From a bacterium (GTDB taxonomy: Bacteria > Myxococcota_A > Bradymonadia > Bradymonadales > Bradymonadaceae): a DNA stretch of 28,630 nt. Location: contig JAUIBR010000002.1 in NCBI GenBank assembly GCA_030427705.1, forward strand, positions 1-28,630, given 5' to 3'. The notes beneath the pieces were generated by a model that saw only the letters and a program-made list of their open reading frames with translations, was not told where the DNA came from and did not search any database. This document shows positions 1 to 24,354 of the stretch, one piece after another (positions within the stretch are counted from its first letter, which is position 1; every line of letters begins with the position of its first letter). Made by a program: the position numbers and the translations under genes.

Positions 1-254
1 GCCGCTGACAACGGCAGCACTGGCGGTATCGCGGGTGCAAACGAGTGTTATTACGCGTTCCAAGGCCACAACAACGGCTACGTTGTCGAGGTCCGCGACG
101 TCCAAGACGTCTTTTCTGATGAAGTTAATGTGAGGCCGGACTCCCGCGAGTGGAGCCCCGACCAAGGTTACACGTTCTGTGTTGAGAAGGTATCCAATGT
201 CTGTGAAGAACCTCCGTGTCAGATTTACCCCAATGGTTGCGGGCCTCCTATGTA
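1..254 (+). CDS. 3' end of an upstream gene (C-terminal fragment, Cys-rich, no product assignable)
   Basis: Frame 1 is open from the window edge to a TAG stop at 252-254. Third-codon positions are strongly G/C-biased, like the neighbouring genes. The predicted tail (..CYYAFQGHNNGYVVEVRDV..CEEPPCQIYPNGCGPPM*) has no start codon because the gene is truncated by the window. It overlaps the start of the next gene. Confidence 0.35.
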
Positions 255-1615
255 GTGGCTTGATCGTCGCCTGTGGCGGCGATGAATCGACCGACGACAA
301 CGAAGACATGGGGCGGGCCGATATCATTCGTCCCCCAAAGAACAACACGACCGACGGTTGGGAGATTGGTGTCATCGATACAGGTGGCGTTGGTCTTCAT
401 CCCGAAGCCGCAGTGTCTGCGGGCGGCACGATTGGTGTGGCATACTACAGCACCAGCCTTCGCGAAGACGGTGAGTGCGTCGAGCTCATGGGCACAGACG
501 GCAACCCAGTCCGCGCCCGTTGGCAGATGAAGTATGCGCAGTTTGACGGGACCTCGACCTGGACGCCTGAGATGATTGGCGAACCGCTCTACGTCGGAAC
601 GCCTCCGGGACTAGACATCGGCTTCAACGGGGAGACGCCGTTGGTCGCGGCCATGACCGGCGACCCGCTTCCGATGTTCCTCTACTGTGGTGTGAACAAC
701 GCAGGCCTCTACACCCGCGCAGGCGCTGGCAGCTGGACCTCTGAAGACGTCGCGGCAACCAGTGCAGATGCCGCTTTCAACGATCCCGTCAGCGATTTCG
801 GCGATGTGATTGGCTACTGGCCAACGCTCGCGATCTCTTCAACCGGCCAGATGGCGGTCGCGTGGAAAGATGTGCATGGCGGCGGTCTTCAGTCTGACGA
901 TTTCCGTAAAGCTGACTTCGAGATGGCGTTCGGCGCGCCCGGTGGTTGGACGGCCAATCCGGTCGACATGACGCGCGGCGCCGGGAACTTCGCGGACGCG
1001 GCATTCGATGCTTCGGGTCGCATCATTCTGGTTCAATTCAACCAAACTGAGGCGCCAGGTTTCCAACCGGGCATTTTCGCTCATCGGAGCGCCGACAACG
1101 GCGCGACTTGGGAGACGGTACAACTGTTCTCAAGCCCAACTGTCGACGGCCCGACGATCACTGTGGCTCCAGATGGGACCGTTCACGTCGCGTACTACCA
1201 GAGCCAACGCGGCTATCCTGAGGTCATGACTCTGACGGATGACACGCAATTCGAGTCGGTTTCAGCGGGTTGGACCAAGCAGGACATTGGCGACAGCCGA
1301 TACGACGAAGGCTACGGAACATCGATCGCGGTCGCCGACAGCGGGACGGTGGCAGTCGCCCATCGCCGTTGCAACGTTTCAACACAGCTGGGCGATTGCG
1401 ATGTGAACGACGATGGCCTCATCTTCACCTACCAAAGCGGTGGTGGATGGGAGCGCGAAGTGGTCACCGACGGAGACTTGGCCACGTGTGGCCTGCAACC
1501 TTCGCTTGTTTTCGACTCTCTGAACCGACCCGTGATCATCTATCGATGTGAGGTGTTAAACGGTTCGACCCTTGACGTGCAACTGCAATGGGCGCGACGC
1601 TCTACGCCACTATGA
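197..1615 (+). CDS. BNR/Asp-box repeat (beta-propeller-like) lipoprotein
   Basis: The track ORF runs 179..1615 from a GTG. The in-frame ATG at 197 is preferred because GAGAAGG lies 6 nt upstream. The signal peptide MSVKNLRVRFTPMVAGLLCSGLIVAC carries a lipobox (IVAC). There is a canonical Asp-box S-x-D-x-G-x-T-W (SADNGATWETV). Blade-like motifs recur (GGTIGVAYYS, DGTVHVAYYQ, DSGTVAVAH, SGRIILVQF). The stop overlaps the next start (ATGA). Confidence 0.7.
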   Translation: MSVKNLRVRFTPMVAGLLCSGLIVACGGDESTDDNEDMGRADIIRPPKNNTTDGWEIGVIDTGGVGLHPEAAVSAGGTIGVAYYSTSLREDGECVELMGTDGNPVRARWQMKYAQFDGTSTWTPEMIGEPLYVGTPPGLDIGFNGETPLVAAMTGDPLPMFLYCGVNNAGLYTRAGAGSWTSEDVAATSADAAFNDPVSDFGDVIGYWPTLAISSTGQMAVAWKDVHGGGLQSDDFRKADFEMAFGAPGGWTANPVDMTRGAGNFADAAFDASGRIILVQFNQTEAPGFQPGIFAHRSADNGATWETVQLFSSPTVDGPTITVAPDGTVHVAYYQSQRGYPEVMTLTDDTQFESVSAGWTKQDIGDSRYDEGYGTSIAVADSGTVAVAHRRCNVSTQLGDCDVNDDGLIFTYQSGGGWEREVVTDGDLATCGLQPSLVFDSLNRPVIIYRCEVLNGSTLDVQLQWARRSTPL

Positions 1616-2106
1616 AGTACCGATTTCTATTGCTCTTCCTTGCCATGTTCGCCTCGATCGGATGCTCCGATGACGAAGGCGCACTGCGCGGTAGTTTGGA
1701 AGAGTTCTATAATATCAATTACGTCGACGTCCGGGCTCGCCTCTATCCAAGCGAGCTGGCGGTCGAGTACATCCGCGAGAACGGCCAGGTCCCTGTGCGC
1801 GTAACCCTGCGGCGAACTGAAGGCCAACCGATTCGCACTGGTGACTACGATCTCGGGACAAAGGGCAATATTACCGGGCGATCTGGCGACAATGACATCC
1901 CTCCTTTTGTCGGGGGCTCGTTGACGCTGGAGGAATTCTCGGCGTCCAATGGTTCCTCGATCGTAGGTGAGTTTTCTGCGAGATTTCGCACAGGTGATGA
2001 CGAAGCCGCGCTTAGTGGCGACTTCGACACTGAGCTGGAAGTTATCGACAACATCGCTGGCTACGATGCCGATTTGAGCTACTTGTTTGATATGGACATG
2101 CCTTGA
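1612..2106 (+). CDS. small lipoprotein of unknown function
   Basis: An ATG lies at 1612, in frame within track ORF 1588..2106. The signal peptide with lipobox is MKYRFLLLFLAMFASIGCSDD. There is a 4-nt ATGA overlap with the upstream gene. The sequence is acidic, Gly/Asp-rich and likely periplasmic. Confidence 0.65.
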   Translation: MKYRFLLLFLAMFASIGCSDDEGALRGSLEEFYNINYVDVRARLYPSELAVEYIRENGQVPVRVTLRRTEGQPIRTGDYDLGTKGNITGRSGDNDIPPFVGGSLTLEEFSASNGSSIVGEFSARFRTGDDEAALSGDFDTELEVIDNIAGYDADLSYLFDMDMP

Positions 2107-2107
2107 C

Positions 2108-2578
2108 ATGGACAAGTTTCGATTTTTCATCCTGACCGGGTTCATCTTCGCGTTGACCGGCTGCGTCAACGATGACCGCGTGTTTACGCAGGGTCGAATC
2201 GAAGACCTTTGCAATGAATCGATCCCGGTTTGTAATCGCAAAGCCACCTGCCTGATGGGCAACGATGAGTTCTTCTCGGGTCAGTTTCCGAGTGGCCAGT
2301 ATCTTCTGGTCCGAACTGAATTTGAGGACATGAAGCTCATCGCTCGATTCCTCTTGGATGAAATGACGTTTCCCGGCACGGAAATGTTGGTGAAGATCTA
2401 CACGCCCGACTGTTCGGACTTCGAAGAAGACCATCCGCAAAATGTCGACCTCTTCGATCTGGCAGGCGACGATCGAATCATCGAGTTTGAGTTGGATGCG
2501 GCAGGCCGCGGCGACCATTTGGTCGAAATATTCTCCGACATGAGCGCATCGTACAAGATGACGCTTGAAGTCGAGTAA
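2108..2578 (+). CDS. small lipoprotein of unknown function
   Basis: An ATG lies at 2108, in frame within track ORF 2087..2578 (the TTG at 2087 is less likely). The signal peptide with lipobox is MDKFRFFILTGFIFALTGCVNDD. It begins 2 nt after the upstream stop. Confidence 0.65.
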   Translation: MDKFRFFILTGFIFALTGCVNDDRVFTQGRIEDLCNESIPVCNRKATCLMGNDEFFSGQFPSGQYLLVRTEFEDMKLIARFLLDEMTFPGTEMLVKIYTPDCSDFEEDHPQNVDLFDLAGDDRIIEFELDAAGRGDHLVEIFSDMSASYKMTLEVE

Positions 2579-2724
2579 ACTCCACAAAAATTGACCAAAA
2601 TTGCCCGGCTTTCTGCCTAGTCAGATTTGCCGAGGTCGATTATATTTCTTGGCACTCGAACCCAAGTTTATTCCTACGCCCCTTGGGCGAAATTGAATTA
2701 CGTATCCTCAAGAGCCAGGTTGCT

Positions 2725-3351
2725 ATGAGAAAGGCTACAAGCCTATTGGCCTTTGCCGCGGTTGCTCTCTGCCTTTTGTTCCCCAGCGCAGGATTTGCGC
2801 AGGCGGAAGACTATGCCGCAAAAGTGGTCCAAAATCGCAAATTCGACCCGACCCACGAGTTCGGGGTTAATCTGGGATGGCTACCGCTAGACGCCTTCAC
2901 GAAGGGCATCTCGGTGAGCGGCCAATACACCCTCCACTTCAGCGAGTCCTGGGCTTGGGAAGTGGTTCAGTTCTTCTACTCGTTCCAATACGACACGAGT
3001 CTTGCCGACGAGCTGGAGGACTTTGACCTGGCACCGACCCCGTTTGAGATTGTCGATTTCTTCGTCACTTCAAACGCTGTGTGGAAACCCCTGTACTGGA
3101 AAGGCTCTTGGCTAAACGACACGCTGACCTACGGGGAGATCTTCTTCGTCGCAGGTGGTGGCTATGGCTGGCTGACCCGGAGCGCCCGCCCTGCATTCGA
3201 CGCAGGTGGTGGTTTCCGTATCTACGCCGGTCCGTTGTTCAGCTTCCGTTTTGACATGCGTTACTTGATGTTCATCGGAGACAACATCTTCGAGGACTTC
3301 GACGTGAAAGACGAACTTTGGCTTGGAATTGGGACGTCCATTGCATTCTAG
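2725..3351 (+). CDS. small outer-membrane beta-barrel protein (OmpA-less barrel, ~190 aa mature)
   Basis: An ATG lies at 2725 inside track ORF 2683..3351. The signal-peptidase-I signal peptide is MRKATSLLAFAAVALCLLFPSAGFAQA/ED. The body shows alternating hydrophobic/aromatic beta-strand patterning. The C-terminal residue is Phe (..GIGTSIAF), as in outer-membrane beta-barrels. Confidence 0.6.
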   Translation: MRKATSLLAFAAVALCLLFPSAGFAQAEDYAAKVVQNRKFDPTHEFGVNLGWLPLDAFTKGISVSGQYTLHFSESWAWEVVQFFYSFQYDTSLADELEDFDLAPTPFEIVDFFVTSNAVWKPLYWKGSWLNDTLTYGEIFFVAGGGYGWLTRSARPAFDAGGGFRIYAGPLFSFRFDMRYLMFIGDNIFEDFDVKDELWLGIGTSIAF

Positions 3352-4789
3352 AAACACAATACTCGCGGCGGCGCTGCTGGGGGTTCTGTTGTTTTTGAAC
3401 AGTGGATGCTCTTCAGTTTCGCTCGCGACGGACCGCGACGCGGTCTACAAACAGGCGGTCGAAGCCTCTCTGGAGGGCGAGCATGCGCTCGCTGGGGCTG
3501 CGGCAAATCGCTATATCTCGGGCTCCTCCACGGATGATCCACGCTATGACCGTGGCCTTCGTATCCTCGCTGAAAGCGCCGAGAAACTTGGATTCACTTA
3601 CGCCGCGTCGCTCTGGTACCTCGAGATTGCCGAGTCGCGTCGTGACGTCGACGTCACTGACGAGGCCGTGCGCGGGCTTGAGCGTATTATGGCCACCGAC
3701 GGATATGACGAAGGCACCATCCTCCAAGGCTTCCTCGGCTCCGACGATATTTCAGGGCTTCCGCCCGAGCAGATGGCTTTCGTGAAGTTCCATCAAGGCG
3801 TCAACAGCCTTCGACGTGGTGTTCGCGACTGGGCAATCCTACAATTTGAACAGATTCCGGACGGCAGTTCGTACCAGGTTCGAGCCCAATACGTCCTCGC
3901 AGTAGACAAGCTTCAGAAATACCAACTCTCGGATGCCCGTGAGGACCTCGAGCTCATCCTGGAACGGGACGAAGACAAGCGTCTGCCGCTGGATCTTCGT
4001 AATGACATTCAACGAACACTCGCTCGAATCGCGTTTGAGCAGGCTCGCTACAAAGACGCCATCGAACTCTATACCGAGCTCCGAGAGACCGCGCCCGATG
4101 ACCCGGGGCTGCTTCTGGAGATGGCGTGGAGCCACTACTACAACCAAGAGTATGAACGTGCGCTCGGTCTGCTCATCGCGCTCGACGCACCCGCCTACCG
4201 TGGTCTCATCGCTCCTGAGCGCTTCTTGCTCGAAGCGTTGAGCCTTCGACATATTTGCCAATTCGAGCCCGCCCGAAACGCCGCGATTCGTCTGCGACGT
4301 ACCTATGGAGATGCAATCGAGCAGCTCTACGACGGTGTGCCGCTGAAGGAATCGATGCCGCTGCGAAAAGCCGCTCGCGTCCGCACCTCTGACTCACCGC
4401 TTGGAAAGTTCCGCGCCACTGTGGAGCGGGAACAAGCCATGATTGAGGAGCTCGAAGGCGACATCGGCGAGGAATTCTCGAAGCGCCTCAATGAAGTCTA
4501 CAAACAGGGCCTCGTGGAAGCGAAACGTCGAGAGGACGAGGAATTGGTTTTCGAAATGCGTCAGGTTGCTCAAGAGCTACTGGATGCGGAAGAAGGCGTC
4601 CGCTTGATCCTGCACGAACTTGGTGTCGCCTTGCTGCGCGGACGACGTCGTCCTGCTGGCGTAGAGGAACGCATCAAGATCGAGGATACGTTTGGCCGAG
4701 AGAACATCCTCTACCAATTCCAGGGTGAATTCTGGACGGACGAACTGGATGACCTCGTTGTGACGATGGAGGACCGATGTATCGAGTAG
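3323..4789 (+). CDS. TPR-repeat lipoprotein
   Basis: The track ORF is used. The start is uncertain (TTG at 3323 or TTG at 3341). The signal peptide with lipobox is ..HSRNTILAAALLGVLLFLNSGCSS. Helical-repeat (TPR-like) segments are present, e.g. AIELYTELRETAPDDPGLLLEMAWSHYYNQEYERALGLLIAL. Confidence 0.65.
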   Translation: MELGRPLHSRNTILAAALLGVLLFLNSGCSSVSLATDRDAVYKQAVEASLEGEHALAGAAANRYISGSSTDDPRYDRGLRILAESAEKLGFTYAASLWYLEIAESRRDVDVTDEAVRGLERIMATDGYDEGTILQGFLGSDDISGLPPEQMAFVKFHQGVNSLRRGVRDWAILQFEQIPDGSSYQVRAQYVLAVDKLQKYQLSDAREDLELILERDEDKRLPLDLRNDIQRTLARIAFEQARYKDAIELYTELRETAPDDPGLLLEMAWSHYYNQEYERALGLLIALDAPAYRGLIAPERFLLEALSLRHICQFEPARNAAIRLRRTYGDAIEQLYDGVPLKESMPLRKAARVRTSDSPLGKFRATVEREQAMIEELEGDIGEEFSKRLNEVYKQGLVEAKRREDEELVFEMRQVAQELLDAEEGVRLILHELGVALLRGRRRPAGVEERIKIEDTFGRENILYQFQGEFWTDELDDLVVTMEDRCIE

Positions 4790-7700
4790 CAAAGCACACT
4801 TTGCTTGGGCTCGCGATGGTTCTAGCGCTATCGAGCTGTGCCTCGGAGCCCCAGCAGTTGCAGGACACCCCGACAGTCGAGGTCCTGCGTCTCAATATCA
4901 CCAAGGTTCGAAACGCCATCGCCGAGACGCGCGCAACCATCGCGGTCTCCCGTGGTGCGCCCTACCTTCCTGAATTCTATGTGCGTCTTGCCGAGCTTCT
5001 CAGTGAAGAAGCGCGATACCACTACCAGCTGGCGTACGAACGTGAACAGCGCTCAACGAAAGTGCTTCACGTGCCGCAAGTCCGCTTGCTGAAAGAGGAT
5101 GCGATCAATACTTACGAGATCGTGTTGAGCCGTTTCCCGGACTCACCGCTCGTCCCACGCGTTCTTTTCAATATTGGCCACGAACATCGTGAACTCGGTA
5201 ATTTCGACGAAATGCGAAAGGTCTTGAACCGGCTCGTCGATAACTACCCAGATTCCCCGCTTCGTGCGGATGCTCTCATCGTGTTGGGTGACTACCACTT
5301 CGACCGAAATGAACTGCCAGATGCGCTGCGCTACTACGAAGAGATCGCGAAAGGAGAGCTGACGCCAGTCACTGGTCTTGGCCACTACAAACTCGCTTGG
5401 GTTTGGGTCAACGAGGGTGAGTGCAAGCCCGCGCTCGACAACTTCGAGAAAGCGATCGAACGCTCCAACGATTGGGCCGAGCGTATGCGTAAGCTCGCAT
5501 TGCAGAAGATTGAGACTCCGCTCTTGGTTCAGGCCGAAGCTGGAGACGAGATTACGACTCAGCAGGATATCGATGTTCGACGCGAATCCCTGGTCGACCT
5601 TGCGTACTGCTATTCACGCCTGCGAAAGCCCCAAGATTCGGTCAAATTCCTTAAGAAGTATGCCTACAACCGAGAGACCTACGTCGCTGCGCTCAATAAG
5701 TTGGCGAATCGCTATCGCACCATGGACCAATTCCAGGGTGCGGTGCTGATCACCCGAGAATTGTTGAGTTTGGGTGCTGCGAATATCGACCGACTCGACG
5801 ACGCGCGGACGTTGTACACGTCGATCAAGAAGTTGAAGGACTACCGAACCATCGGAGTAGATGCGGAGCTGATTGGTGACTCGCTGACCAATTACTACAG
5901 CCGTGTGAACATCAAGGCCGACGAACGAGAGCGATTGGTCAAGGAATTCGAAGTCTACCTTCGTGACCTCGCCACGACCTCACAAGAACGGATGATCAAG
6001 AAGCGTCGCAAGTCTGCTGGCCCCGAGGACGTGGCACGAGCGTACAAAGCCTACCTCGACACCATTCCCGTCAGCGACAAACGACCCGACATGCTTCTGA
6101 ACTACGCAGACCTTCTGGGTTCAAACGGTCAAGAACTTGAGGCAGGTGTGCGGTCGATGGAGGCTGCAGATTTGCTGGAAGACGACGGACAGCGCCGCGA
6201 CGCACTTTACGACGCGGTCGTCTACTTCCAAGCGTCGCTCGCCAAAGAAAGCGACCGCCTGCGCTACGAGCGCGTTGCGGCCCGCTCGGCGCTTCGTCGT
6301 GCCGGCGCCACCCTGCTCTCGTACAAGCTCAACGAAGAGAAAGAGCGACGTGTGAAGTTTGCCATCGCGCAGGCTATCTACGACGAGGGCCTCTATGTTG
6401 AGGCTATCGATAAGCTCTCTGCCGTCGCCTACGAGTTCCCGGGCACGGATGAGGCTGACGCCGCGGTGAAGTTGACGTTGGACAGCTTCAATACGCTCAA
6501 TGATTACGACGGCCTGATGTACGCCAGTCGCCGATTCTTGAGTGCAGGAAGCCCGGTTTCAGACAAGCTGAAAGGCGAAATCAAACGAATCCAGGGTGCC
6601 GCAGAACAGCGCAAACTTGACGAGCTCGCCCTGGCAGCAGCTGGTGAAGATGGGGCAGATATCTCGCCACTCATCGCCTTCGCCGAGAAGAACAAAGGTA
6701 CTGACCTTGGGGAGCGTGCTCTTATCAACGCGTTCGTCGCGGCCCGCGCCACCGGCGACACCGAGAAGATGTACAAGCTCGCCGATTCGATGGCGAAAAC
6801 CTATCCGAAGAGCGACCAGCTTCCCGGTATCTACACGACCTTGGCCCAGACGGCGGTCGCGCGCTTTGACTACGACACAGCAATCCGGTTCATGAAGCGG
6901 GCTGCGGACGTCAACCCATCGCAGCGCATCCGACTGCTCATCGCCGCAGGCGAGCTGAACGAACAGCTCGGCGAACCGAAGAAGGCTGAGAAGCTCTTCG
7001 ACGAAGCCCTCAGTGACAACAATCCGCAGTCGCAGGCCGACGCCTTGGAGCGCTTGTCTTCGATGATTGAAAAGTATGACGGCGTCGATTCGGTCAAACG
7101 CAAACTGAACTCCTACACCGACCAAGGAGAGCCAGAAACCAACTCACGAATTGGACTGGCGATGATTGGAGCTGGAAACGCAGAGGAAGGCGAGATGCTC
7201 TTGCAGAGCGTCCTGAACAACGATTCGGCGTCTGGTGAGGCGCTCGCTCGCGCCCACTTCGGAATGGGCGAGTTGATGCTCAATGTCATCAACCAGTACC
7301 CAGACCCTGAGGATGTCGACCTCATCGAGGAATTCATCATCCTCATCGACGTTATGCAGCAGAGCTACCTGAACGCGGCTCGGCAAGGCAGCTACACGTA
7401 TGCCGCGGCTTCGCTGTCACGCCTTTCTTCTGCGCTCATCTCGGTTTCTAAGAAACTGAGCCGAATGAAGATGCCGGACGGATTGACGGGGGCTCAGAAG
7501 CAACAGGTCAAAGCAGCGCTCGACGCGCGTGTCGAAGGTCTCGAGCAGAGCGCTTCCGAAGCGCTCACCGCTTGTGGGAATCAAGCCTGGACGGCTGCGA
7601 ACTTCACTCCACCCGTGCGTGACTGTCTCAAAGGCAACGCGTTGGATGGAATCGAGGTCAAGTTCGACCAGGTGAAATCCCGAAGTGCGAAGGCCCCGAA

Positions 7701-8058
7701 GGGTTTGGACGAGCTCCGTGCTGAGCTTTCCAAGAACCCTGAGAACGTCGATAAGCTGCGTGAGCTTGCAGAGAAGTTCCTGGATGCCAAAGACCCCCAC
7801 TCGGCGCGACTGGTGCTCGCACGAGCGATTCAGGTTGGCGGTGGTGCCCTTGAGCAGAATCTCATCGGCGTCGCGTCCTACGAGATTGGCGACGTTGCCT
7901 CAGCGTTTGATGGGTTCGCGCGAGCCGCCGAAGGTGGACTCGAAGCGGGTCGAACAAACATGAAGACGTTGCTCAAGAAGGAAGGCCTTTCCAAGCAGGT
8001 CAGTGAAGTGGATAAGCGATTCCAGAAAGGCCGTGACGGCGGGAGGTTGATCAAATGA
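4777..8058 (+). CDS. large (1093 aa) TPR-repeat lipoprotein
   Basis: The ATG at 4777 is preceded by GGAGG. The signal peptide with lipobox is MYRVAKHTLLGLAMVLALSSCAS. Many TPR-like repeats are present (..ALIVLGDYHFDRNELPDALRYYEEIA.., ..GHYKLAWVWVNEGECKPALDNFEKAIE..). Its size class and architecture are like GltD/NfsD-type periplasmic TPR scaffolds (inference). Confidence 0.8.
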   Translation: MYRVAKHTLLGLAMVLALSSCASEPQQLQDTPTVEVLRLNITKVRNAIAETRATIAVSRGAPYLPEFYVRLAELLSEEARYHYQLAYEREQRSTKVLHVPQVRLLKEDAINTYEIVLSRFPDSPLVPRVLFNIGHEHRELGNFDEMRKVLNRLVDNYPDSPLRADALIVLGDYHFDRNELPDALRYYEEIAKGELTPVTGLGHYKLAWVWVNEGECKPALDNFEKAIERSNDWAERMRKLALQKIETPLLVQAEAGDEITTQQDIDVRRESLVDLAYCYSRLRKPQDSVKFLKKYAYNRETYVAALNKLANRYRTMDQFQGAVLITRELLSLGAANIDRLDDARTLYTSIKKLKDYRTIGVDAELIGDSLTNYYSRVNIKADERERLVKEFEVYLRDLATTSQERMIKKRRKSAGPEDVARAYKAYLDTIPVSDKRPDMLLNYADLLGSNGQELEAGVRSMEAADLLEDDGQRRDALYDAVVYFQASLAKESDRLRYERVAARSALRRAGATLLSYKLNEEKERRVKFAIAQAIYDEGLYVEAIDKLSAVAYEFPGTDEADAAVKLTLDSFNTLNDYDGLMYASRRFLSAGSPVSDKLKGEIKRIQGAAEQRKLDELALAAAGEDGADISPLIAFAEKNKGTDLGERALINAFVAARATGDTEKMYKLADSMAKTYPKSDQLPGIYTTLAQTAVARFDYDTAIRFMKRAADVNPSQRIRLLIAAGELNEQLGEPKKAEKLFDEALSDNNPQSQADALERLSSMIEKYDGVDSVKRKLNSYTDQGEPETNSRIGLAMIGAGNAEEGEMLLQSVLNNDSASGEALARAHFGMGELMLNVINQYPDPEDVDLIEEFIILIDVMQQSYLNAARQGSYTYAAASLSRLSSALISVSKKLSRMKMPDGLTGAQKQQVKAALDARVEGLEQSASEALTACGNQAWTAANFTPPVRDCLKGNALDGIEVKFDQVKSRSAKAPKGLDELRAELSKNPENVDKLRELAEKFLDAKDPHSARLVLARAIQVGGGALEQNLIGVASYEIGDVASAFDGFARAAEGGLEAGRTNMKTLLKKEGLSKQVSEVDKRFQKGRDGGRLIK

Positions 8059-8822
8059 AACACCTCATCCTGATTCTCATTCTGACGTTATTGGTTCCGA
8101 TTGGTTGCGGAAGTTCGGTTAAACCAATCGACCTTCATGACCCCAACGTCCCACTCGATGCGCGTCGCTTCGTCGCTGACGCACAAGACGCTGTATCGAT
8201 TGCTAGAGCACGTCGTGACGAGGCTGCAGATCGCCTTGCGTTTGCAGAGAACTGGCAAGACGAAGTCACGACACCAGAGCTCTGGCCGAAGGGCTCAGAC
8301 GCCATCCTGCAAAAGCTAAAGACGTTTACGCAGGCTCGCGTCGACATGAGTGAGCTGGAGTTTGAACAGGCATCGGCCAAGCTGGACTTGGCGGAGGCCA
8401 AATACGACCTTTCGACCGCACAGACTGCGATGCGAAACGACCTCGCCGTCTATGATCTTGAACCGCTGAAGGCTCGCGCCGAGTCAATTCGTGGGGAAAT
8501 CGAGACGCTCTCAGGAAAGATCGAGGACCAACGCCTCAAGTTGGACAAGCTGACGCTGGACTGGTGGAAGTCCTACAGCAAATTCGCCGGCGATAAGGAA
8601 GTTCGCGCTTTCTACGTATCTCCGCAACTCTTCGCTGAACTGAAAGCCCGTGATGCCGACCTCAAGGCCAAGCGTGCTGAGAAGAAGAAGCAGGACGAAA
8701 AAGACGCCAAGGATAAGGACAAAAAGAACGCCGACAAAGACGCCAAGAAGGACGACACGCCGGCTAAGAAACCCTCGGAAGAGAAAATTACCGAGGATGA
8801 TGCGATTGACTTGGACCTCTAG
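8055..8822 (+). CDS. coiled-coil lipoprotein with Lys/Asp-rich low-complexity C-terminus
   Basis: The ATG at 8055 overlaps the upstream stop (ATGA), with GGGAGG 8 nt upstream. The signal peptide with lipobox is MKHLILILILTLLVPIGCGSS. Heptad-like coiled-coil segments are present. The tail is KKKQDEKDAKDKDKKNADKDAKKDD. Confidence 0.7.
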   Translation: MKHLILILILTLLVPIGCGSSVKPIDLHDPNVPLDARRFVADAQDAVSIARARRDEAADRLAFAENWQDEVTTPELWPKGSDAILQKLKTFTQARVDMSELEFEQASAKLDLAEAKYDLSTAQTAMRNDLAVYDLEPLKARAESIRGEIETLSGKIEDQRLKLDKLTLDWWKSYSKFAGDKEVRAFYVSPQLFAELKARDADLKAKRAEKKKQDEKDAKDKDKKNADKDAKKDDTPAKKPSEEKITEDDAIDLDL

Positions 8823-8854
8823 TCCAACTCTCGCGATTCACTTCCAACTAGAAA

Positions 8855-9367
8855 TCAGTCGCAAGGATTTGCGGGGACTTCTTCATTGAACTCACACGGA
8901 GTCACAATGGACTTGTCCTGTCCGTCTGCGACCGTCTCCGCGCACACTGGCACAACAAGCTGAGGGAAGTTCCCTGCATCGCTCTCGATGACCAGAGCAA
9001 TAGCATCGCGTCCAGGGTTCTCGCGCTCATAGGTAAGTCGGAAGGCGTATTGCTCACCCCCGTTGACCTTTGATGGCAGTGGGTCCTCGGACTCCAAAAT
9101 CCAATTGGAGTTGATGACACCCTGGTTGCCGATAAGGCACGCCTTTTCGATGTTGATCGCTGCGTTCTCGGCCTCGACCAACAAGGCAAACTCGTATGGA
9201 ACGCGTTCGTTGGAGCCTGGCTCGGCGTCATTAGCGCCCTGAGGCCAGAGCTTCCCGAGGTTTACAGGTGAGACGGCAGGCAGAATGTCTCCGCCCTCTT
9301 CGTCCGACGATCCACATCCGAAACACAAACAGGACGCGGCACACAGTGCGAAATACTTCGCTTTCAT
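8855..9367 (-). CDS. lipoprotein of unknown function (last gene of minus-strand operon)
   Basis: The signal peptide with lipobox is MKAKYFALCAASCLCFGCGSSDEE. AAGGA lies upstream of the ATG. It lies 24 nt downstream of the pseudokinase-TonB-like gene. Confidence 0.7.
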   Translation of the reverse strand: MKAKYFALCAASCLCFGCGSSDEEGGDILPAVSPVNLGKLWPQGANDAEPGSNERVPYEFALLVEAENAAINIEKACLIGNQGVINSNWILESEDPLPSKVNGGEQYAFRLTYERENPGRDAIALVIESDAGNFPQLVVPVCAETVADGQDKSIVTPCEFNEEVPANPCD

Positions 9368-9391
9368 TGGCGTTCCTTTCTAAATACCTAA

Positions 9392-12300
9392 TCAGCCAGA
9401 TTTGAAGATGAATGGGAACTTGATGATGACTTCGCCGCCTTTCGGACGTGGGAACTTCATCCCTTTGATGACGCCGCTCACGCACTTGGAGACTTGAGCG
9501 CTGCCCAGTGAGTTGCCTTTCTCTTTGACCGCACCCACACGCCCGTTGGTCTTCACAGTCCATTCGAATGTCAGCTTACCGCCCAACGACGGATTTTTGT
9601 TGAGCTCTTTCTCGTAGCACCGTTGGATCTTGCCCATCGAACCCTGGATAACCTCCCAGACTTGGGAGCGAGACAGCGTACCTTGGACTTTGGCGAGTGC
9701 TTTGACACCACGCGCCTTGCCGCGGACCTTGCCAGATTTCTCGCGCGCTTTGAGCTTCCCGGTGCCGCCATCGACAGAGCCACCGATGTCACCAATCTTG
9801 CTGCCACCTGGGTCGCGAGCAATGTTGACCTTGCCGCCTTCAAGCGCGCCCAACGTACCGGTGACGTTAAACGCTGCATTTGAAGCTCCTGGCTTCGCCA
9901 CTGCGTCGATATTCGTGACCACGTCTTTGATGGTTTTGCCCTCCCCTTTCTGCGGGGTGGTGAGGGCTGCCATCAGACGGTCGGCCTTGTCCTCGTTCTT
10001 TGTCGATTTGTTTCGAAGTCGCTTATCAAGCTGCTTTCGAACCGACTTAGGAATCTTCGCTTTAGCCTCGGTCGGGTCGACCGGTTTCTTTTCCGATAGC
10101 TTCTTTGGCTTCGGCTTTTTCTTCTTCGGCTTTGGCTTCGGCTTCGGCTTTTTCTTCTTAGGCTTATCGAGCTTGCCTTCGGCGAATACCTCGACCTCAT
10201 CAGGACGGTTGATGGTGAGATTCATACCAAGCTCGGCACTAAGCAGCGCGCCCAACATTCCGAGCCCATGGAGCACCAACGAGATAGCGAACGCGATGCC
10301 GTAAATCTTCAGTTCTTGGGGCGTGAGCAGTCGCTGATCACGCGATGGTGGCTGTGGAGGTCGGAAAAAGCGGACGTAATACTTCAGCCCATCTTCCTCG
10401 AATTCGACAGCATCTCCGGGCTTCATCGACAGCTTGTCACGGTCGCCCAGGTTTTCCTTCGGCGCATTTGCCAGGCGGACCCAGCCTTGTACGGGCTTTT
10501 TGAACTTCAAGGTCGCCGAACCACCACTCTTCGTTGCTGAGAACGACGAACCAGGTCGCTTGTAACGCCCGAGCCCCCGAATCACCGTGATGTCTAGCGG
10601 CGCATCGGCAGCGGTTCGAATGATCTCCAGCACCGGTTTGGTATTGGATTCTTTCGGCGCGAGTTCTGGAGGCTCCACGATAAGGTCGATCGGGAACGGT
10701 TCAAAGAACGGTTCCTCATCTTCGTCATCCTCGTCGAGCGGCAGAAACTCAGGCATGAATTTCTGGGGTTCCGGAGCGGGCGCTGCTTGCGCTGCTTGCG
10801 CAGGCGCAGGTTCCGGTTGTGGCGCAGGTGCGGGTTCTGCGGCGGCTGGAGGCTGCGTCTCCGCGAGCTCGTCCTCAAAGCCCGCAGGAACGTCCTCCGG
10901 TGTCTCCGGCATCGGTTGCGGTTTGTACGCTGCGTGCGTCACCGCGGGGTCTTCCCCAATCCCAAGCGCTTCTGGAACGTCTTCGAACATCGGATTGGGC
11001 GCGACATTGGTTTCAGCCCGATCCGCGTCTTCCATCCGAGTTTCCAAACTTGGAGTTCCGGTCGGTAGCGTCTGTGCGAGGTCTTCGTCTGCCCATTGAA
11101 GGTTGGGTACGTCATGAGGAAGTGTGGTCTCGGCTGGATTGCCAAGGGGCGCGGACGTCATGACCGTTTGGTCGTCGTCGCTACCCGCGGCTTCCATGAG
11201 CCGAGAAACCTCTGCTGCCGACGTTTGGACCGTCGGTTCCTCTGCAACCGGGTCGTCCCACATTCCGGCCAGCTTATCGGCGGCCGCACCAATCGGGGCG
11301 GCATCCCAGCCTTCTCCTACCGGATTAGGCTCGCCATCCAAGATGCCGAGCGCTGCATCAACGTCCTGCGCAAACTGGGCGACCATATTGCCGTCGATGC
11401 GATCTGTGTGGGACTCGGCAGTTTTAGGCGCGGTCTGTTGAGCCCGAAGCGCGGCAGCGTGATTTTGATTTGTTGCATCAACCGTCGCGTCGTTGATTTG
11501 GAACAACGACATCGCAACATCGCCAGCACCACTAAAGTCACCGGCGCGGGACTTCTGCTCTAGCGCTTTCCATCGCTCAAGCCGTTTCGGGAACAGCTGC
11601 GACATGATCCGCGGAACGCGTTCCAAAGCCTTGGATGGGTCGCTAGCGAGCTTTCGCAGCGCGACCGCCATGTGTTCAGCATTTTGGAAGCGATCGTCTG
11701 GACGGCGCTCCAGCGCGCGAAGAACGATGCTATCTAATCCTGGAGTTACCTTCGCGTTGTAGGCCGAAGGAGGCTGAATCGGTTGCTCACAAATCGCTTT
11801 TGCAACATCGCCACCTTCGAAAAGTCGACGCCCGGTCAACAGTTCCCAAAGGACCACAGCAAGCGAAAAGACGTCACTTCGCGGCTCAGCAGGACGACCC
11901 CGGACTTCCTCAGGAGACATGTAGGCGATGCGGTCGACCGCCATGGGCGCAACATTATTCAAGTGCGCCTGGCGTATACCCTTGGCGACTCCAAAATCCT
12001 GCAGGACAACGTTGCCCTCGTAACTAAGCGCGATCGTGTGAAAATCGATGCCACCGTGCACGACCTTGAGCGACCAACCGGCAGCGTTTTTCGCTGTATG
12101 GGCGTGGTGCAGGGCTTCGGCAGTGACCGTCGCGAGCGAGATTGCGAGAGGAATCGTCAGGGTTTCATAGCCCCGGCGACGCAGCTCGTCGAAGAAGTCG
12201 CGTAGGGTTTCGCGAGAGTTGATGTCCTTGATGAACCAGACAACGCCGCCCTCTTTGCCAGCGGCGAACGTCGTTTCAATGTTTGGATGCTTGAGCTGCA

Positions 12301-12493
12301 TTGCGAGCTGCAGCTCATAGTCGAGGACCGTATCGACGCCAGGAGCGCTGGCAACTTCGCGTGGAAACGACGTCGCGCGAACAATCGGCAACTGGTCGTA
12401 GTCTGGCTCTCGGTTTTTCCCAATCCATGTCTCGTGCAGACCGTCCTTGGTCAATTGCGCGAGCATGTCGAATTTGGTTAGGACCGTCGTCAT
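9392..12493 (-). CDS. inner-membrane protein with an N-terminal degenerate Ser/Thr protein kinase (pseudokinase) domain, one TM helix, a periplasmic Lys/Pro-rich linker and a C-terminal TonB-C-like domain
   Basis: The 1033-aa ORF has an ATG start that overlaps the upstream stop (ATGA). Residues ~8-285 have a PknB-like kinase fold (DFG, SPE, RSDVFSLAVVLWELLTG, RFQNAEHM), but the catalytic motifs are replaced (see findings). The region of residues 520-720 is an acidic/Pro-rich linker followed by a small beta-rich module. The TM helix is IYGIAFAISLVLHGLGMLGALLSAELG. The Lys/Pro linker is KPKKKKPKPKPKPKKKKPKPKK. The C-terminal ~95 aa is basic and beta-rich, ending in ..GEVIIKFPFIFKSG, typical of TonB/TolA C-terminal domains. 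Confidence 0.85.
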   Translation of the reverse strand: MTTVLTKFDMLAQLTKDGLHETWIGKNREPDYDQLPIVRATSFPREVASAPGVDTVLDYELQLAMQLKHPNIETTFAAGKEGGVVWFIKDINSRETLRDFFDELRRRGYETLTIPLAISLATVTAEALHHAHTAKNAAGWSLKVVHGGIDFHTIALSYEGNVVLQDFGVAKGIRQAHLNNVAPMAVDRIAYMSPEEVRGRPAEPRSDVFSLAVVLWELLTGRRLFEGGDVAKAICEQPIQPPSAYNAKVTPGLDSIVLRALERRPDDRFQNAEHMAVALRKLASDPSKALERVPRIMSQLFPKRLERWKALEQKSRAGDFSGAGDVAMSLFQINDATVDATNQNHAAALRAQQTAPKTAESHTDRIDGNMVAQFAQDVDAALGILDGEPNPVGEGWDAAPIGAAADKLAGMWDDPVAEEPTVQTSAAEVSRLMEAAGSDDDQTVMTSAPLGNPAETTLPHDVPNLQWADEDLAQTLPTGTPSLETRMEDADRAETNVAPNPMFEDVPEALGIGEDPAVTHAAYKPQPMPETPEDVPAGFEDELAETQPPAAAEPAPAPQPEPAPAQAAQAAPAPEPQKFMPEFLPLDEDDEDEEPFFEPFPIDLIVEPPELAPKESNTKPVLEIIRTAADAPLDITVIRGLGRYKRPGSSFSATKSGGSATLKFKKPVQGWVRLANAPKENLGDRDKLSMKPGDAVEFEEDGLKYYVRFFRPPQPPSRDQRLLTPQELKIYGIAFAISLVLHGLGMLGALLSAELGMNLTINRPDEVEVFAEGKLDKPKKKKPKPKPKPKKKKPKPKKLSEKKPVDPTEAKAKIPKSVRKQLDKRLRNKSTKNEDKADRLMAALTTPQKGEGKTIKDVVTNIDAVAKPGASNAAFNVTGTLGALEGGKVNIARDPGGSKIGDIGGSVDGGTGKLKAREKSGKVRGKARGVKALAKVQGTLSRSQVWEVIQGSMGKIQRCYEKELNKNPSLGGKLTFEWTVKTNGRVGAVKEKGNSLGSAQVSKCVSGVIKGMKFPRPKGGEVIIKFPFIFKSG
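9395..9676 (-). other. TonB-C-like C-terminal domain
   Basis: The C-terminal ~94 aa follow the proline/lysine-rich spacer and are periplasmic by topology. Composition and length resemble TonB_C/TolA_C. An HMM search is needed to confirm. Confidence 0.5.
10226..10306 (-). other. single transmembrane helix of the 1033-aa protein
   Basis: Reverse-complement translation gives LKIYGIAFAISLVLHGLGMLGALL. It is followed by the KP-repeat linker encoded at ~10094..10168. Confidence 0.7.
11639..12472 (-). other. kinase-like (predicted pseudokinase) domain of the 1033-aa protein
   Basis: The catalytic-loop segment VVHGGIDFHTIAL is encoded at 12026..12064 (checked by reverse-complement translation). It takes the place of the canonical I-V-H-R-D-x-K-x-x-N. 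Confidence 0.7.
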
Positions 12494-13005
12494 TCCTTCT
12501 TACCCTTCAACTTCTTCGATTCGCCTTCCTTCTGGATCTCCTTCTCTGCTTCGACTTTCGTTTTCTCGAATTGTTCCACTTGTTCTCGGCCGAGCACGTT
12601 TCGAACCGTCAGTGAAAGGTAGCTGTCGCGCTTCTTTACCATGGATGGCAGTGGTCGAGGCGCACGTTGAAAAAGGAAGACTGCGCCGGATCCTGCGGTC
12701 TCACCGCGAATCAAGCGACCATCGAACTCCATCCGGTTTCCGCGTTGGAGTGTGGCTGCTTCGACTTGTTCGCCCGCTTCTTCTTCGCCCTCTTCGCCTT
12801 CCTCGCCTTCTTCACCCTCTTCCTCATCTTCCTCGTCTTCCTTGTCCTTCTTCTTTTTCTTCTTTTTGGACTGAGCGAGGATGATTTGATCGCCTGATCC
12901 ATCAAGGATCTTTAGACCGCTATCTTGCGCCGATGCATTGGTCGAAAATGTGACCAATGAGAGCGCGATGAGTACGAGTAAGATGTGCTTTGCCATGGGG
13001 CTCAC
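12490..13005 (-). CDS. secreted protein with a poly-Lys / (Glu-Glu-Gly)n low-complexity segment
   Basis: The signal peptide is MSPMAKHILLVLIALSLVTFSTNASA/QD. The start may be the GTG at 13005 or the ATG at 12996. The low-complexity run is KKKKKKKDKEDEEDEEEGEEGEEGEEGEEE. There are 4-nt overlaps with both neighbours. Confidence 0.6.
   Translation of the reverse strand: MSPMAKHILLVLIALSLVTFSTNASAQDSGLKILDGSGDQIILAQSKKKKKKKDKEDEEDEEEGEEGEEGEEGEEEAGEQVEAATLQRGNRMEFDGRLIRGETAGSGAVFLFQRAPRPLPSMVKKRDSYLSLTVRNVLGREQVEQFEKTKVEAEKEIQKEGESKKLKGKKE
12766..12870 (-). repeat. coding low-complexity repeat (poly-K then (EEG)n) within the secreted protein gene
   Basis: It is visible in the DNA as ..cttcttcgccctcttcgccttcctcgccttcttcaccctcttcc..cttctttttcttctttttgg. 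This is coding sequence, not a CRISPR or SSR locus. Confidence 0.6.
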
Positions 13006-13484
13006 TTCTTCATGATCGCAAGGCGATACTTGTCAAAACCTGCCATACTGGCAGACCGCATAACGAGATACAGCGTCTGGTAATCCAAGCCTTTGTCAGC
13101 CTGAATCAAGACGATTGCCGGATCTTCTTCGTTTTCGGGGTCTTCGATGGCGAGAATCCGCTCACGCTCTTCCTTGAGCAGCTCAACGACCTCGGGAATC
13201 TCGCCGTCGGAATAATACTGTTCGTCGAATTTGCCGCGATTGAGCGTCATGACCTTCTTGCCATCGAGCTTTAAATCAACTGGCGTAATCGCCAGGTTGA
13301 CCGCCGGCTTCAGGACCGATTGCGCTGATGACTCAGGAAGTTTGAGGTCTGAATCGAGTTTGAACTCGTAATCTTCAGCCTCGAAGCTGACGATGAGGAA
13401 AATCAGGATGATGGTGAACATGTCCAGAAGGGACGTCAGCATCAGGCCTGCAGGCTTCTTCTCTCTGGCGAAGCGACTGTTCAC
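13002..13484 (-). CDS. exbD: ExbD/TolR family biopolymer-transport (proton-motive-force stator) protein
   Basis: At 160 aa it has a short cytoplasmic N-terminus. The TM segment LMLTSLLDMFTIILIFLIV contains the conserved protonatable Asp (aa 21, codon 13422..13424). A periplasmic domain follows. It has a GTG start and 4-nt overlaps on both sides. Confidence 0.85.
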   Translation of the reverse strand: MNSRFAREKKPAGLMLTSLLDMFTIILIFLIVSFEAEDYEFKLDSDLKLPESSAQSVLKPAVNLAITPVDLKLDGKKVMTLNRGKFDEQYYSDGEIPEVVELLKEERERILAIEDPENEEDPAIVLIQADKGLDYQTLYLVMRSASMAGFDKYRLAIMKK

Positions 13485-14101
13485 TCTTCGCCTCCTTCAT
13501 CCATCTCCATCTCTTCTTCGCCGCCAGCTTCACCTTCGCCCTCAGGGTCTTCGCCCTCATTGATGGGGTTCTCGGTGATCTTGCGACTAAAGATGGTCAC
13601 AGGGAAAAGGTCTTCGCGGACGTCTTCACCATCTTTGTCTTTGCCCGTCACATGGTTACGCGTGTGGTCGAGAATCTCGACCAGGTCTTGGTATCCAAGC
13701 TTTTCATGGGGCAATACGGTGATGGTGTTTGACTCGGGATACTGTCCTTTGATGTCCAAGAGCGCCGCTTGCACGTCTTTTACGGGGTACTTCCCGGCCT
13801 TCTTACCCCACTCGCCAGAGAGTGCCGTAAGTTGCTCTTCGCTCAAACTCACACTCGCTGCCGAAATCGCAATCGTATCCACATCGATTTCCATGTTCAC
13901 AGCCACCGTGGTCGGCGTCTTGGGAACATCGGAGTCCGATGGACTCAACGTAGGCGTCGAGGTCGGAATCACGCCGATATGGAAGAAGGTCGCGCCCAAC
14001 AGAAGGAACGGAATCAAGACCATGAACAGGTTCATGACCGGGACCACGTTCAAGTCTGCAGCGGCCTCATCGGCGGCAGATTTGAATCGACTAAAAGCCA
14101 C
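13481..14101 (-). CDS. ExbD/TolR-like paralog with Asn in place of the conserved TM Asp and an acidic C-terminal tail
   Basis: It is 206 aa. The TM segment DLNVVPVMNLFMVLIPFLL aligns to ExbD ..NVTPFIDVMLVLLIIF.. with Asn24 (codon 14030..14032, checked) at the Asp position. The C-terminus is EGEDPEGEGEAGGEEEMEMDEGGEE. Confidence 0.8.
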   Translation of the reverse strand: MAFSRFKSAADEAAADLNVVPVMNLFMVLIPFLLLGATFFHIGVIPTSTPTLSPSDSDVPKTPTTVAVNMEIDVDTIAISAASVSLSEEQLTALSGEWGKKAGKYPVKDVQAALLDIKGQYPESNTITVLPHEKLGYQDLVEILDHTRNHVTGKDKDGEDVREDLFPVTIFSRKITENPINEGEDPEGEGEAGGEEEMEMDEGGEE

Positions 14102-14111
14102 GAGTTACGTC

Positions 14112-14837
14112 CTAGCGTTGGGCTCGACCATCTGTGCCCGAGTCGCCTCGAACACCAGCGATTGCTACTAGAACCGAACTTGCGCCGCCTTCCATTTCCA
14201 ACAAGATCGTTTCGACCCGTTTGGAAAGAAGGTGGTGGAAAAGCAAGAGCGGAACAGCAACGGAAATCCCGAAAGCCGTCGTGTACATAGCTTGGGAGAT
14301 ACCGTCGGCAAGTGCTGCCTGTCGTTCCGCGGCGGACGCGGCGGCCACACTCGAGAACGCGGCAATCAGACCGAAAATCGTACCCAACAGCCCGAGCAGC
14401 GTCGCGATATTGGCCATCACGGCCATGATCGCCACTCGCTTCTGGAGCTGAGGGATGGCGGCCAGCATCTCGTTCTCCATCGCACGCTCGATCTCTTTCT
14501 CGCGGCGGTTGGAACGAAGAAGGCCGGCCTTAATCACGGCAACCAACGGATGCTTTGAGCTGGCCTCAGTTGCATCGATGGCTTCCCGGAATCGCCGGTT
14601 TTCGACCTGGCTGACGACCCGTGCAACGAAGTTTCGCGCATTGAGCCGCCGTAGCAGGTAAAGGTTAAAGGCGCGTTCTAGGAACATCGCCACCCCGATC
14701 ATCGAGACGATCAGGATGACGTACATCATCCAACCGCCCTTATCGAGGTACTCCAGCAGAACGTTACCGCCCCCAGCCTCTTCCGCAGCAGCTTGTGCGA
14801 GAATTGGCGTCACAAAACTTTGAATCGTCGGAAGCAT
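14112..14837 (-). CDS. exbB: ExbB/TolQ/MotA family proton-channel protein
   Basis: It is 241 aa with three predicted TM helices (..WMMYVILIVSMIGVAMFLE.., ..AIMAVMANIATLLGLLGTIFGLIAAF.., ..AMYTTAFGISVAVPLLLF..). It lies immediately upstream of the two exbD-like genes. Confidence 0.85.
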   Translation of the reverse strand: MLPTIQSFVTPILAQAAAEEAGGGNVLLEYLDKGGWMMYVILIVSMIGVAMFLERAFNLYLLRRLNARNFVARVVSQVENRRFREAIDATEASSKHPLVAVIKAGLLRSNRREKEIERAMENEMLAAIPQLQKRVAIMAVMANIATLLGLLGTIFGLIAAFSSVAAASAAERQAALADGISQAMYTTAFGISVAVPLLLFHHLLSKRVETILLEMEGGASSVLVAIAGVRGDSGTDGRAQR

Positions 14838-14901
14838 CTTCTTCCCAAGTTTCGAAAAACGACTGATTTATGGTGTTTCTTTGCTCGGGAAAGGTACCAC
14901 G

Positions 14902-14964: not shown

Positions 14965-14981
14965 GAAGAGATTTCGCCGAG

Positions 14982-18721: not shown

Positions 18722-18731
18722 TTTTGTCTCC

Positions 18732-23309: not shown

Positions 23310-23312
23310 ATC

Positions 23313-24293: not shown

Positions 24294-24354
24294 CTGGACT
24301 CCTCTAGCAACCCGCATTGATTACCAACACATCGCCCAGACATGAAGAACAATA

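Follow-up and report, generated by a model that had tools for sequence, protein, structure and literature searches.

Does the cluster of lipoprotein and tetratricopeptide repeat (TPR) genes that opens contig JAUIBR010000002.1 serve the TolQ/TolR-like motor encoded beside it and, if so, in what kind of machine? The contig belongs to assembly GCA_030427705.1, from a bacterium of the family Bradymonadaceae (Myxococcota_A), and the window that we analyzed is the whole stretch of 28,630 nucleotides (nt) from its position 1. Seven successive open reading frames (ORFs), g1 to g7, fill 179/197–8822 of the + strand and end tail to tail against a minus-strand block, m1 to m7 (8855–16952), that holds the motor genes. 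A sequence-only reading of this DNA had proposed that the + strand block makes the outer-envelope partner of a TolQR-like motor, resembling the Glt and Nfs systems. Conserved linkage, family-level matches of two of its proteins, and clusters that bridge it to catalogued Glt loci all support that proposal. We consider it probable that 2725–8822 encodes the outer-membrane and periplasmic module of a force-transducing machine of the Agl-Glt/Nfs family, of the type designated G5 in Myxococcus xanthus, and that 8855–16952 encodes its motor, its transducer, and a probable adhesin.

The two blocks stay together in related genomes. All window proteins were mapped onto 66 species-representative loci, and neighbors were counted within 10 kb in the 32 loci that have long flanks on both sides (full-flank loci). 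The triad formed by the barrel gene (g4), g5, and g6 is present and collinear in 61 of the 61 loci long enough to hold it. Within 10 kb, 23 of the 32 full-flank loci have a TolQ homologue, 27 have either TolQ or a gene for a GltG-like TonB protein, and 22 have a homologue of the TSP3-repeat lipoprotein m7. Three layouts recur: convergent, as in the window (8 loci); co-directional, in the order TSP3-TolQ-ExbD-ExbD-m3-m2-barrel-g5-g6-g7 (7 loci); and TSP3-m3-m2-barrel-g5-g6 with the motor downstream (8 loci). Because the linkage persists through three rearrangements, the + strand block and the motor block probably act as a functional unit. Thus, the co-localization in relatives on which the sequence-only reading depended is found, with motor or TonB-like genes adjoining the triad in each arrangement. 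The identities of g6 and the motor proteins also correlate across loci (rho 0.86–0.89), but we dropped this as support because any vertically inherited protein pair would correlate.

The remaining five full-flank loci, in which neither a motor gene nor a TonB-like gene lies within 10 kb, would fit a different explanation: the + strand block could be a lipoprotein/TPR operon in its own right, for example with a scaffold of the BamD, LapB, BcsC, PgaA, or PrsT type for outer-membrane biogenesis or exopolysaccharide export, that merely sits beside the motor. Weak, generic TPR matches to BamD, LapB, PorW, PrsT, and BcsC point the same way, as does the annotation of some metagenome homologues as “cellulose synthase operon protein C.” However, these scaffold matches are all below cut-off and are common to any TPR protein. 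No synthase or Bam/Lpt partner genes were found among the window proteins, and a Foldseek search of the g6 model against the PDB yields no specific bacterial export scaffold.

The g5 family also tells against an independent operon. g5 (3341–4789, +) encodes a GltC-like TPR lipoprotein of 482–488 amino acids (aa), which matches the NCBIfam model NF033756 (GltC) with an expectation value (E) of 1e-12. GltC alone is matched by every member of the g5 family (42/42, best E 1.3e-18), whereas PrsT is matched by 27 and BamD by 12 of the same 42. Myxococcia-type orthologues score about 90 bits against GltC, over profile positions 97–445, and across related loci the gene is invariably flanked by the barrel gene and g6. 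The TPR proteins resemble Glt components specifically and BamD, LapB, BcsC, PgaA, and PrsT only as TPR proteins in general, so the clear homology to an unrelated pathway that would have told against the sequence-only reading was not found. Given also the persistence of the motor linkage, an independent operon is highly improbable, the least probable of the alternatives weighed here.

Immediately upstream, g4 (2725–3351, +) encodes a predicted small outer-membrane beta-barrel of 208 aa at the GltA/GltB position. It matches TIGR04565 (OMP_myx_plus, an outer-membrane beta-barrel domain family) at 65.8 bits, above the cut-off of 60, and its orthologues reach 94–99 bits. The protein has a type-I signal (AFA/QA) and a C-terminus ending in SIAF; all family members carry an AxA-type signal. 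The family alignment contains conserved amphipathic, alternating-hydrophobic beta segments and ends in an aromatic or aliphatic residue. At the profile level, then, the barrel predicted for 2725–3351 holds. A single-sequence AlphaFold model of g4 was uninformative (predicted local distance difference test score, pLDDT, 33.8), and PDB sequence-profile searches with the g4, g5, and g1 families returned no relatives. We also considered a TonB-dependent uptake system. This was rejected because scans of the window proteins turned up no TonB-dependent receptor (a 22-strand barrel with a plug domain), the only barrel being one of about 190 aa.

The arrangement of these genes is that of catalogued Glt clusters. 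Luciano et al. 2011 (PMC3169522, Table S3) list a common order of barrel(s)-GltC-GltD-GltE, with K-B-A-C-D-E-F-G-H in Anaeromyxobacter, Bd0828/0829-0831-0832-0833-0834 followed by AglRQS in Bdellovibrio, and C-D-E-x-AglRQS-G in Geobacter. Barrel-C-D is the ancestral Glt order in these three genera. The same table lists paralogous clusters in M. xanthus, namely G3 (nfs), G4, and G5.

Two loci bridge the window to these clusters. A search with a profile built from the most distant g6 orthologues led to a protein of Vulgatibacter incomptus, a cultured species not known to glide. Its locus encodes a 132-aa protein, a 701-aa FHA/GltG-like protein, a 216-aa barrel, and proteins of 501 and 1019 aa, followed, after other genes, by a 216-aa lipoprotein. 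The 701-aa protein scores 140 bits against GltG, the barrel 94 bits against TIGR04565, and the 501-aa protein 4e-13 against GltC. Identity to the window is 47% for m3, 33% for the m2 C-terminus, 43% for g4, 28% for g5 (3e-43), and 32% for g6 (3e-135). The Vulgatibacter g6 orthologue (locus L067, 10001–13284) looks split: after the 1019-aa ORF, and overlapping it, comes a 93-aa ORF in a different frame that matches g6 residues 979–1075. A frameshift, a real truncation, or an error in the sequence could account for this.

The second bridge came from an exhaustive g6 profile search, which returned 1,565 cluster representatives at E ≤ 1e-30. Among them are proteins of 1059–1064 aa from metagenome-assembled genomes (MAGs) of Pseudobdellovibrionaceae, matched over their full length at E 4e-144 and 5e-131. 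The locus of the 1064-aa protein encodes a barrel (212 aa), a GltC-like protein (491 aa), the 1064-aa protein itself, an FHA/GltG-like protein (596 aa), TolQ (218 aa), and two ExbD proteins (157 and 204 aa), with TSP3 proteins nearby. Bd0829–Bd0838, listed as Glt homologues (PMC3169522, Table S3), have the same layout and size pattern. By blastp, six proteins of this locus (the barrel, the GltC-like, 1064-aa, and FHA/GltG-like proteins, TolQ, and the second ExbD) and the nearby TSP3 proteins match window proteins at 23–35% identity and E values of 1e-9 to 9e-41. The barrel is 33% identical to g4 and TolQ 35% identical to m6; as in Vulgatibacter, the barrel gene occupies the same position as g4. 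A 96-aa ORF of the locus was considered as a relative of m3/GltF and is unsupported (E 0.35).

These bridges matter most for g6 (4777–8058, +), a giant TPR lipoprotein of 1093 aa that we presume to be GltD-like and to act as a periplasmic pillar. Its confident AlphaFold2 model (pLDDT 90.5) forms a solenoid made of alpha helices alone, 51 in all. Full-length homologues, lipoproteins of about 1100 aa, number more than 200 and occur in Bradymonadales (Bradymonadaceae, Lujinxingiaceae, and Microvenator) and in Myxococcota MAGs; the cultivable Bradymonas sediminis has a homologue with 49% identity. The protein fits GltD in size, in being a lipoprotein, in its position after a GltC-like gene, and in its all-alpha TPR fold; the link to GltD is indirect, by way of proteins at the GltD position in clusters of the Bdellovibrio and G5 types. 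The residues invariant across the g6 family fall mostly in the N-terminal third. In a published AlphaFold model, it is the N-terminal region of GltD that binds the TonB-like domains of GltG and GltJ (Cambillau and Mignot 2025, PMC11761067). Two cysteines, C933 and C950, are invariant in 105 family members and lie in or beside adjacent helices of the C-terminal domain of our model, so a periplasmic disulfide is possible.

One segment of g6 bears on a further alternative. Residues 107–162 score 66 bits against tol_pal_ybgF, which, together with the TolQ/TolR-like motor and a possible beta-propeller in g1, could be taken for a Tol-Pal-like system of envelope integrity and division, with g6 as a CpoB/YbgF-type protein, g1 as a TolB-like propeller, and m2 as the TolA analogue. 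However, the YbgF match is under its cut-off of 90.1 bits and extends over some 60 of the 1093 residues. g1 has no TolB match and is absent from most related loci, and no Pal/OmpA-like lipoprotein was found in the scans of window proteins. Two TolR paralogs combined with an AgmX/PglI-type C-terminus are the Agl-Glt signature, and in M. xanthus the bona fide Tol-Pal system has a locus of its own. A Tol-Pal-like role is therefore very unlikely.

Several observations weigh against placing the window in the Agl-Glt/Nfs family, beginning with the five full-flank loci that lack a nearby motor. Searches with g6 in Pfam, NCBIfam, and the PDB gave generic TPR matches only, and NCBIfam, which gave a GltE model for other proteins, never gave GltD. 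The best structural matches of the g6 model in the PDB are generic eukaryotic TPR scaffolds (such as IFT-A, Ski3, and Ctr9), at template modeling (TM) scores of ≤0.24, and no M. xanthus protein is among the matches listed in the g6 homology and exhaustive profile searches. Where family models do match, the scores are far from those of equivalogs: g5 reaches 47.6 bits against a GltC cut-off of 450, and m2 reaches 80.7 bits against a GltG cut-off of 650. Because all g5 scores fall far under the 450-bit cut-off, g5 is, by its profile matches, a homologue of GltC and not an orthologue. No window protein matches GltE (NF033758), and g7 with four of its orthologues gives no GltE or TPR match. NCBIfam scans of the proteins of 179–17509 and 20135–26511 found no GltH, GltI, GltK, CglB, or AglZ; GltJ appeared by its shared C-terminal domain only, with no N-terminal ZnR/GYF. 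The window has a single barrel gene, unlike M. xanthus Agl-Glt with its GltA, GltB, and GltH. Finally, M. xanthus with a polar mutation in the gltD homologue of G5 had no motility defect (Luciano 2011, PMC3169522).

Set beside known systems, the window cluster most resembles, in its predicted proteins, the G5-type branch of the Agl-Glt/Nfs family. G5 comprises an F-like protein (MXAN_1331, 162 aa), an FHA-bearing GltG-like protein (MXAN_1330, 749 aa), a GltB-like barrel (MXAN_1329, 246 aa), a GltC-like protein (MXAN_1328, 538 aa), and a GltD-like protein (MXAN_1327, 1089 aa), with no GltE listed (PMC3169522). The window has the same set, at 171, 1033, 208, 488, and 1093 aa, and likewise no GltE. 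The likeness is one of architecture and runs through Vulgatibacter, whose proteins match window m3, the m2 C-terminus, g4, g5, g6, and g7. The co-directional relatives and Vulgatibacter also keep the G5 order m3-m2-g4-g5-g6, whereas the window splits the same genes into two convergent operons. Three other differences stand out. The window transducer carries a Ser/Thr kinase, whereas MXAN_1330 and the Vulgatibacter protein carry FHA; TolQ/ExbD/ExbD and a TSP3 lipoprotein lie next door in the window, whereas the Agl-like motors of M. xanthus are listed elsewhere (M1 and M2); and g1–g3 and m1 are lineage-specific extras of the window.

The “expanded core complex” clusters of Bdellovibrio (e.g., Bd0828–Bd0838) are alike in gene order, with barrel(s)-GltC-GltD-(GltE)-GltG-AglR-AglQ-AglS in one locus. 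The Pseudobdellovibrionaceae locus shares homologues of g4, g5, g6, the m2 C-terminus, m6, m4, and m7 with the window, although at the low identities given above and with its motor co-directional where that of the window is convergent. Bdellovibrio itself has two barrels (Bd0828/0829) and a short GltE (Bd0833, 281 aa), which the window lacks. With the Agl-Glt and Agl-Nfs machines of M. xanthus the window shares a TolQ/TolR-type motor, a TonB-like GltG-type transducer with an AgmX/PglI C-terminus, a GltC-like TPR protein, a giant TPR lipoprotein at the GltD position, an OMP_myx_plus barrel, and a TSP3 relative of the integrin-like adhesin CglD.

The motile G5 mutant makes gliding a doubtful output for this branch. 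It fits a variant of our reading in which the machine belongs to the same Glt/Nfs family and its work goes into moving or building a polymer at the cell surface, as Agl-Nfs does with the spore coat, or into secretion or exposure of a cargo. The presence of the family in Vulgatibacter incomptus, which is not known to glide, fits this variant as well. The Nfs system, as described in PMC3858216, shares the common A-B-C-D-E-F-G order and the same kind of motor. Against this stands the gene content: no glycosyltransferase, Wzx/Wzy, or exo-type genes occur in the window or its conserved neighborhood, and the recurrent neighbor is instead the adhesin-like TSP3 lipoprotein, along with MtsC/MtsD-like genes in one relative. 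A polymer or cargo output thus seems unlikely.

That neighbor, m7 (14982–16952, minus strand), is a 656-aa TSP3-repeat lipoprotein (TSP3_bac 2.3e-15) and a candidate surface adhesin. Its best named adhesin match is MtsD (2e-36, 125 bits), whose 651-position profile is similar in length, and it also matches CglD (7e-10). In one relative (locus L070, 10349–12836), MtsC-like (199 bits) and MtsD-like (121 bits) genes come right after the GltD-like gene of a g6-family cluster. Scores against the Mts models are well under the equivalog cut-offs (800 and 350 bits). The window has no MtsC-like gene. MtsC (printed “MstC”) is placed in cell–cell cohesion, S-motility, and development in the passage of PMC11980579 that cites Zhang et al. 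2007. The mts cohesion locus may be the adhesin set of this machine. Because the TSP3 lipoprotein recurs, is MtsD/CglD-like, and has MtsC/MtsD-like counterparts at that relative’s locus, we favor adhesin-coupled surface work (gliding and/or cohesion), with m7 as the best candidate for the cargo.

Downstream of g6, g7 (8055–8822, +) encodes a 255-aa lipoprotein with a K/D/E-rich tail, specific to this family; labeled coiled-coil in the sequence-only reading, it is here presumed to be helical. It follows g6 in 46 of the 56 loci with room for it, and its profile finds the 216-aa Vulgatibacter lipoprotein (6e-24); no family in Pfam or NCBIfam matches it. The gene sits at the GltE position of canonical clusters. 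We nevertheless rejected g7 as a short GltE, for want of any GltE or TPR signal: hhalign of the g7 family against TPR families gave 8–13% probability.

The conserved module is smaller than the + strand block as a whole. g1 (197–1615, +), with the lipobox IVAC, encodes a 472-aa accessory lipoprotein; its ORF opens at GTG 179, and ATG 197 is preceded by the Shine-Dalgarno sequence GAGAAGG. Its assignment as a BNR beta-propeller is weak, at 21 bits against a cut-off of 31.4 for Pfam BNR_2 and with 3 of 12 orthologues matching, although it contains a single canonical Asp-box (SADNGATW); of the 32 full-flank loci, only 8 have an orthologue. g2 (1612–2106, +) encodes a small accessory lipoprotein of 164 aa with no family matches, whose lipobox cysteine is kept in 15 orthologues. 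g3 (2108–2578, +; lipobox LTGC) encodes a small Cys-rich accessory lipoprotein of 156 aa with a conserved GRxExLC..xPxC motif. In the window g3 is translationally coupled to g2; in most relatives it is on the opposite strand or relocated (e.g., locus L001, 7269–7700, minus strand). Since g1–g3 are present in a minority of related loci and g3 is mostly inverted or displaced, we classify these three genes by their distribution as accessory, outside the conserved machine, and take g4–g7 as the conserved module.

The term “seven-gene operon” is therefore too strong, the more so because a 146-nt gap (2579–2724) sets off g4–g7. This gap had been noted in the sequence-only reading, and most of the other details of that reading were also confirmed. 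A hydrophobic signal sequence starts all seven products, and the six lipoboxes are IVAC (g1), SIGC (g2), LTGC (g3), NSGC (g5), LSSC (g6), and PIGC (g7). The lipobox cysteine is retained in orthologues extracted from the 66 related loci; g5 of the most distant group differs, with a type-I-like signal and then an Ala/Pro-rich linker in place of a lipobox. Of the junctions described as ATGA overlaps or gaps of at most 2 nt, three are so: g1/g2 (ATGA, 1612–1615), g2/g3 (a 1-nt gap), and g6/g7 (ATGA, 8055–8058). The description fails at two of the six junctions. g5 has TTG starts only and overlaps the barrel gene by 11–29 nt, the gene caller taking TTG 3341 and hence 482 aa, and g5 and g6 overlap by 13 nt. 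The spacer between the convergent blocks (8823–8854) is 32 nt long and not 33.

A separate gene call on an identical 8.8-kb Logan contig gave the same genes, with g2–g7 at 164, 156, 208, 482, 1093, and 255 aa. We take g1–g7 to be real genes rather than chance ORFs because each has full-length orthologues, at 30–70% identity, in dozens of genomes. The 146-nt gap contains a sigma-70-like TAGTCA-17-TATATT at 2618–2646 (+), which may be an internal promoter of g4–g7; promoter and terminator scans were at chance level, with sigma-70-like sites no commoner than in shuffled sequence. There is no canonical terminator inside the 32-nt spacer, and the sequence flanking it folds modestly (z = -2.0).

The remaining minus-strand genes supply the motor and its transducer. 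m6 (14112–14837) encodes a TolQ/ExbB-type proton channel, AglR-like (MotA_ExbB 98 bits; TolQ 1e-18), and m4 and m5 (together 13002–14101) encode two ExbD/TolR-like proteins, AglQ/AglS-like (Pfam ExbD 3e-13 and 4e-11). One TolQ with two TolR proteins is the composition of AglRQS. m2 (9392–12493) encodes a GltG-like bitopic transducer of 1033 aa, which runs from an N-terminal Ser/Thr kinase (Pkinase 1.6e-16) through a transmembrane helix and a Lys/Pro-rich linker to an AgmX/PglI (TonB-C-like) domain at the C-terminus. This C-terminus scores 98.4 bits against NF033768 (cut-off 40) and 5e-17 against GltJ, and m2 matches GltG at 8.9e-23 over profile positions 394–647. The cytoplasmic N-terminal domain is exchanged among relatives: 11 proteins (that of the window and those of 10 relatives) have a kinase, about 17 have FHA, and 5 have a third, helical type. 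The FHA-bearing transducers include those of Vulgatibacter and Pseudobdellovibrionaceae; GltG itself carries FHA as well. Because the kinase occupies the same position as the FHA phospho-threonine reader, the exchange suggests a changed regulatory logic.

Upstream of m2 in the minus-strand block, m3 (12490–13005) encodes a secreted acidic protein of 171 aa at the GltF position. A poly-Lys and then a poly-Glu/Gly low-complexity stretch precede its conserved RMEFDxRLIRGE...FLFQR motif. The m3 profile matches the 132-aa Vulgatibacter protein (8.5e-32), and the weak match of that protein to CglF (8.5e-4) suggests that m3 is the GltF counterpart. The last gene of the motor block, m1 (8855–9367), encodes a 170-aa lipoprotein (lipobox CFGC) with orthologues in 13 of the 32 full-flank loci. 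Farther along the minus strand, past the motor operon, lie a DUF1501/DUF1800 pair (17591–20057; 361.7 and 113 bits), which was not found beside the cluster in related loci, a biotin operon, bioF-bioD-bioA-bioB (20135–24317), and a fused MFS/spermidine-synthase gene (24355–26511). The biotin and MFS/spermidine-synthase genes look like common housekeeping genes with no bearing on the cluster.

How might such a machine work? The core complex of Agl-Glt/Nfs-type machinery consists of AglR, AglQ, AglS, GltC, GltD, GltE, and GltG, and the TonB-like GltG binds AglR in a two-hybrid assay (Luciano et al. 2011, PMC3169522). By analogy with Agl-Glt, proton flow through the TolQ-like channel m6 and the TolR-like m4 and m5 would be turned into conformational work, which would act on the bitopic GltG-like m2. 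The C-terminal AgmX/PglI domain of m2 would dock on the conserved N-terminal domain of g6, and g6 would cross the periplasm to join the GltC-like g5. In turn, g5 would lie beneath the small outer-membrane barrel g4, with g7 beside g6 where GltE would otherwise be. The barrel platform would hold or move a surface lipoprotein, m7 being the best candidate, perhaps with g1–g3 as others in this lineage, and motor work would thereby become adhesion-coupled surface movement, as gliding or as cohesion with other cells or prey. What we observe are the gene content, the homologies, and the conserved linkage; we infer the contacts and the still uncertain output from the AglR–GltG two-hybrid result (PMC3169522) and from published AlphaFold models (PMC11761067). 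Gliding does occur in cultured Bradymonadales (PMC7188933).

The catalogue of Glt-like paralog clusters and “expanded core complexes” dates from 2011, when G5 was left without a function (PMC3169522). What is new is a Bradymonadales member with a kinase-fused transducer and with g7, the accessory lipoproteins g1–g3, and m1 as lineage-specific features; in the literature searched, we found no paper connecting Bradymonadales with Agl-Glt genes. We also offer, tentatively and as a rather doubtful idea, that the G5-type branch is a self-contained, widespread “adhesin mover” for TSP3-repeat cargo of the MtsD/MtsC/CglD kind, with an interchangeable input module, and that it powers gliding or prey/cell cohesion in Bradymonadales. 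If so, Bradymonadales would use a Ser/Thr kinase as the input module, Myxococcia and Bdellovibrio-like lineages FHA, and Sandaracinaceae-like lineages a third domain. In the lineage of the window, switching would then depend on phosphorylation carried out by the transducer itself and not on the reading of phospho-threonine, and the Bradymonadales machine would work without the Myxococcus-specific GltH/I/J/K.

What the ancestral Glt “core complex” and the G3–G5 paralogs do has been a question since 2011. Here, a single 17-kb locus of a gliding, predatory lineage brings together a candidate adhesin and predicted motor, transducer, TPR scaffold, and barrel proteins. With dozens of rearranged relatives, it could serve as a compact system in which to define a minimal Glt-type machine and its essential parts. 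It also provides a candidate gliding or cohesion apparatus for the Bradymonadales.

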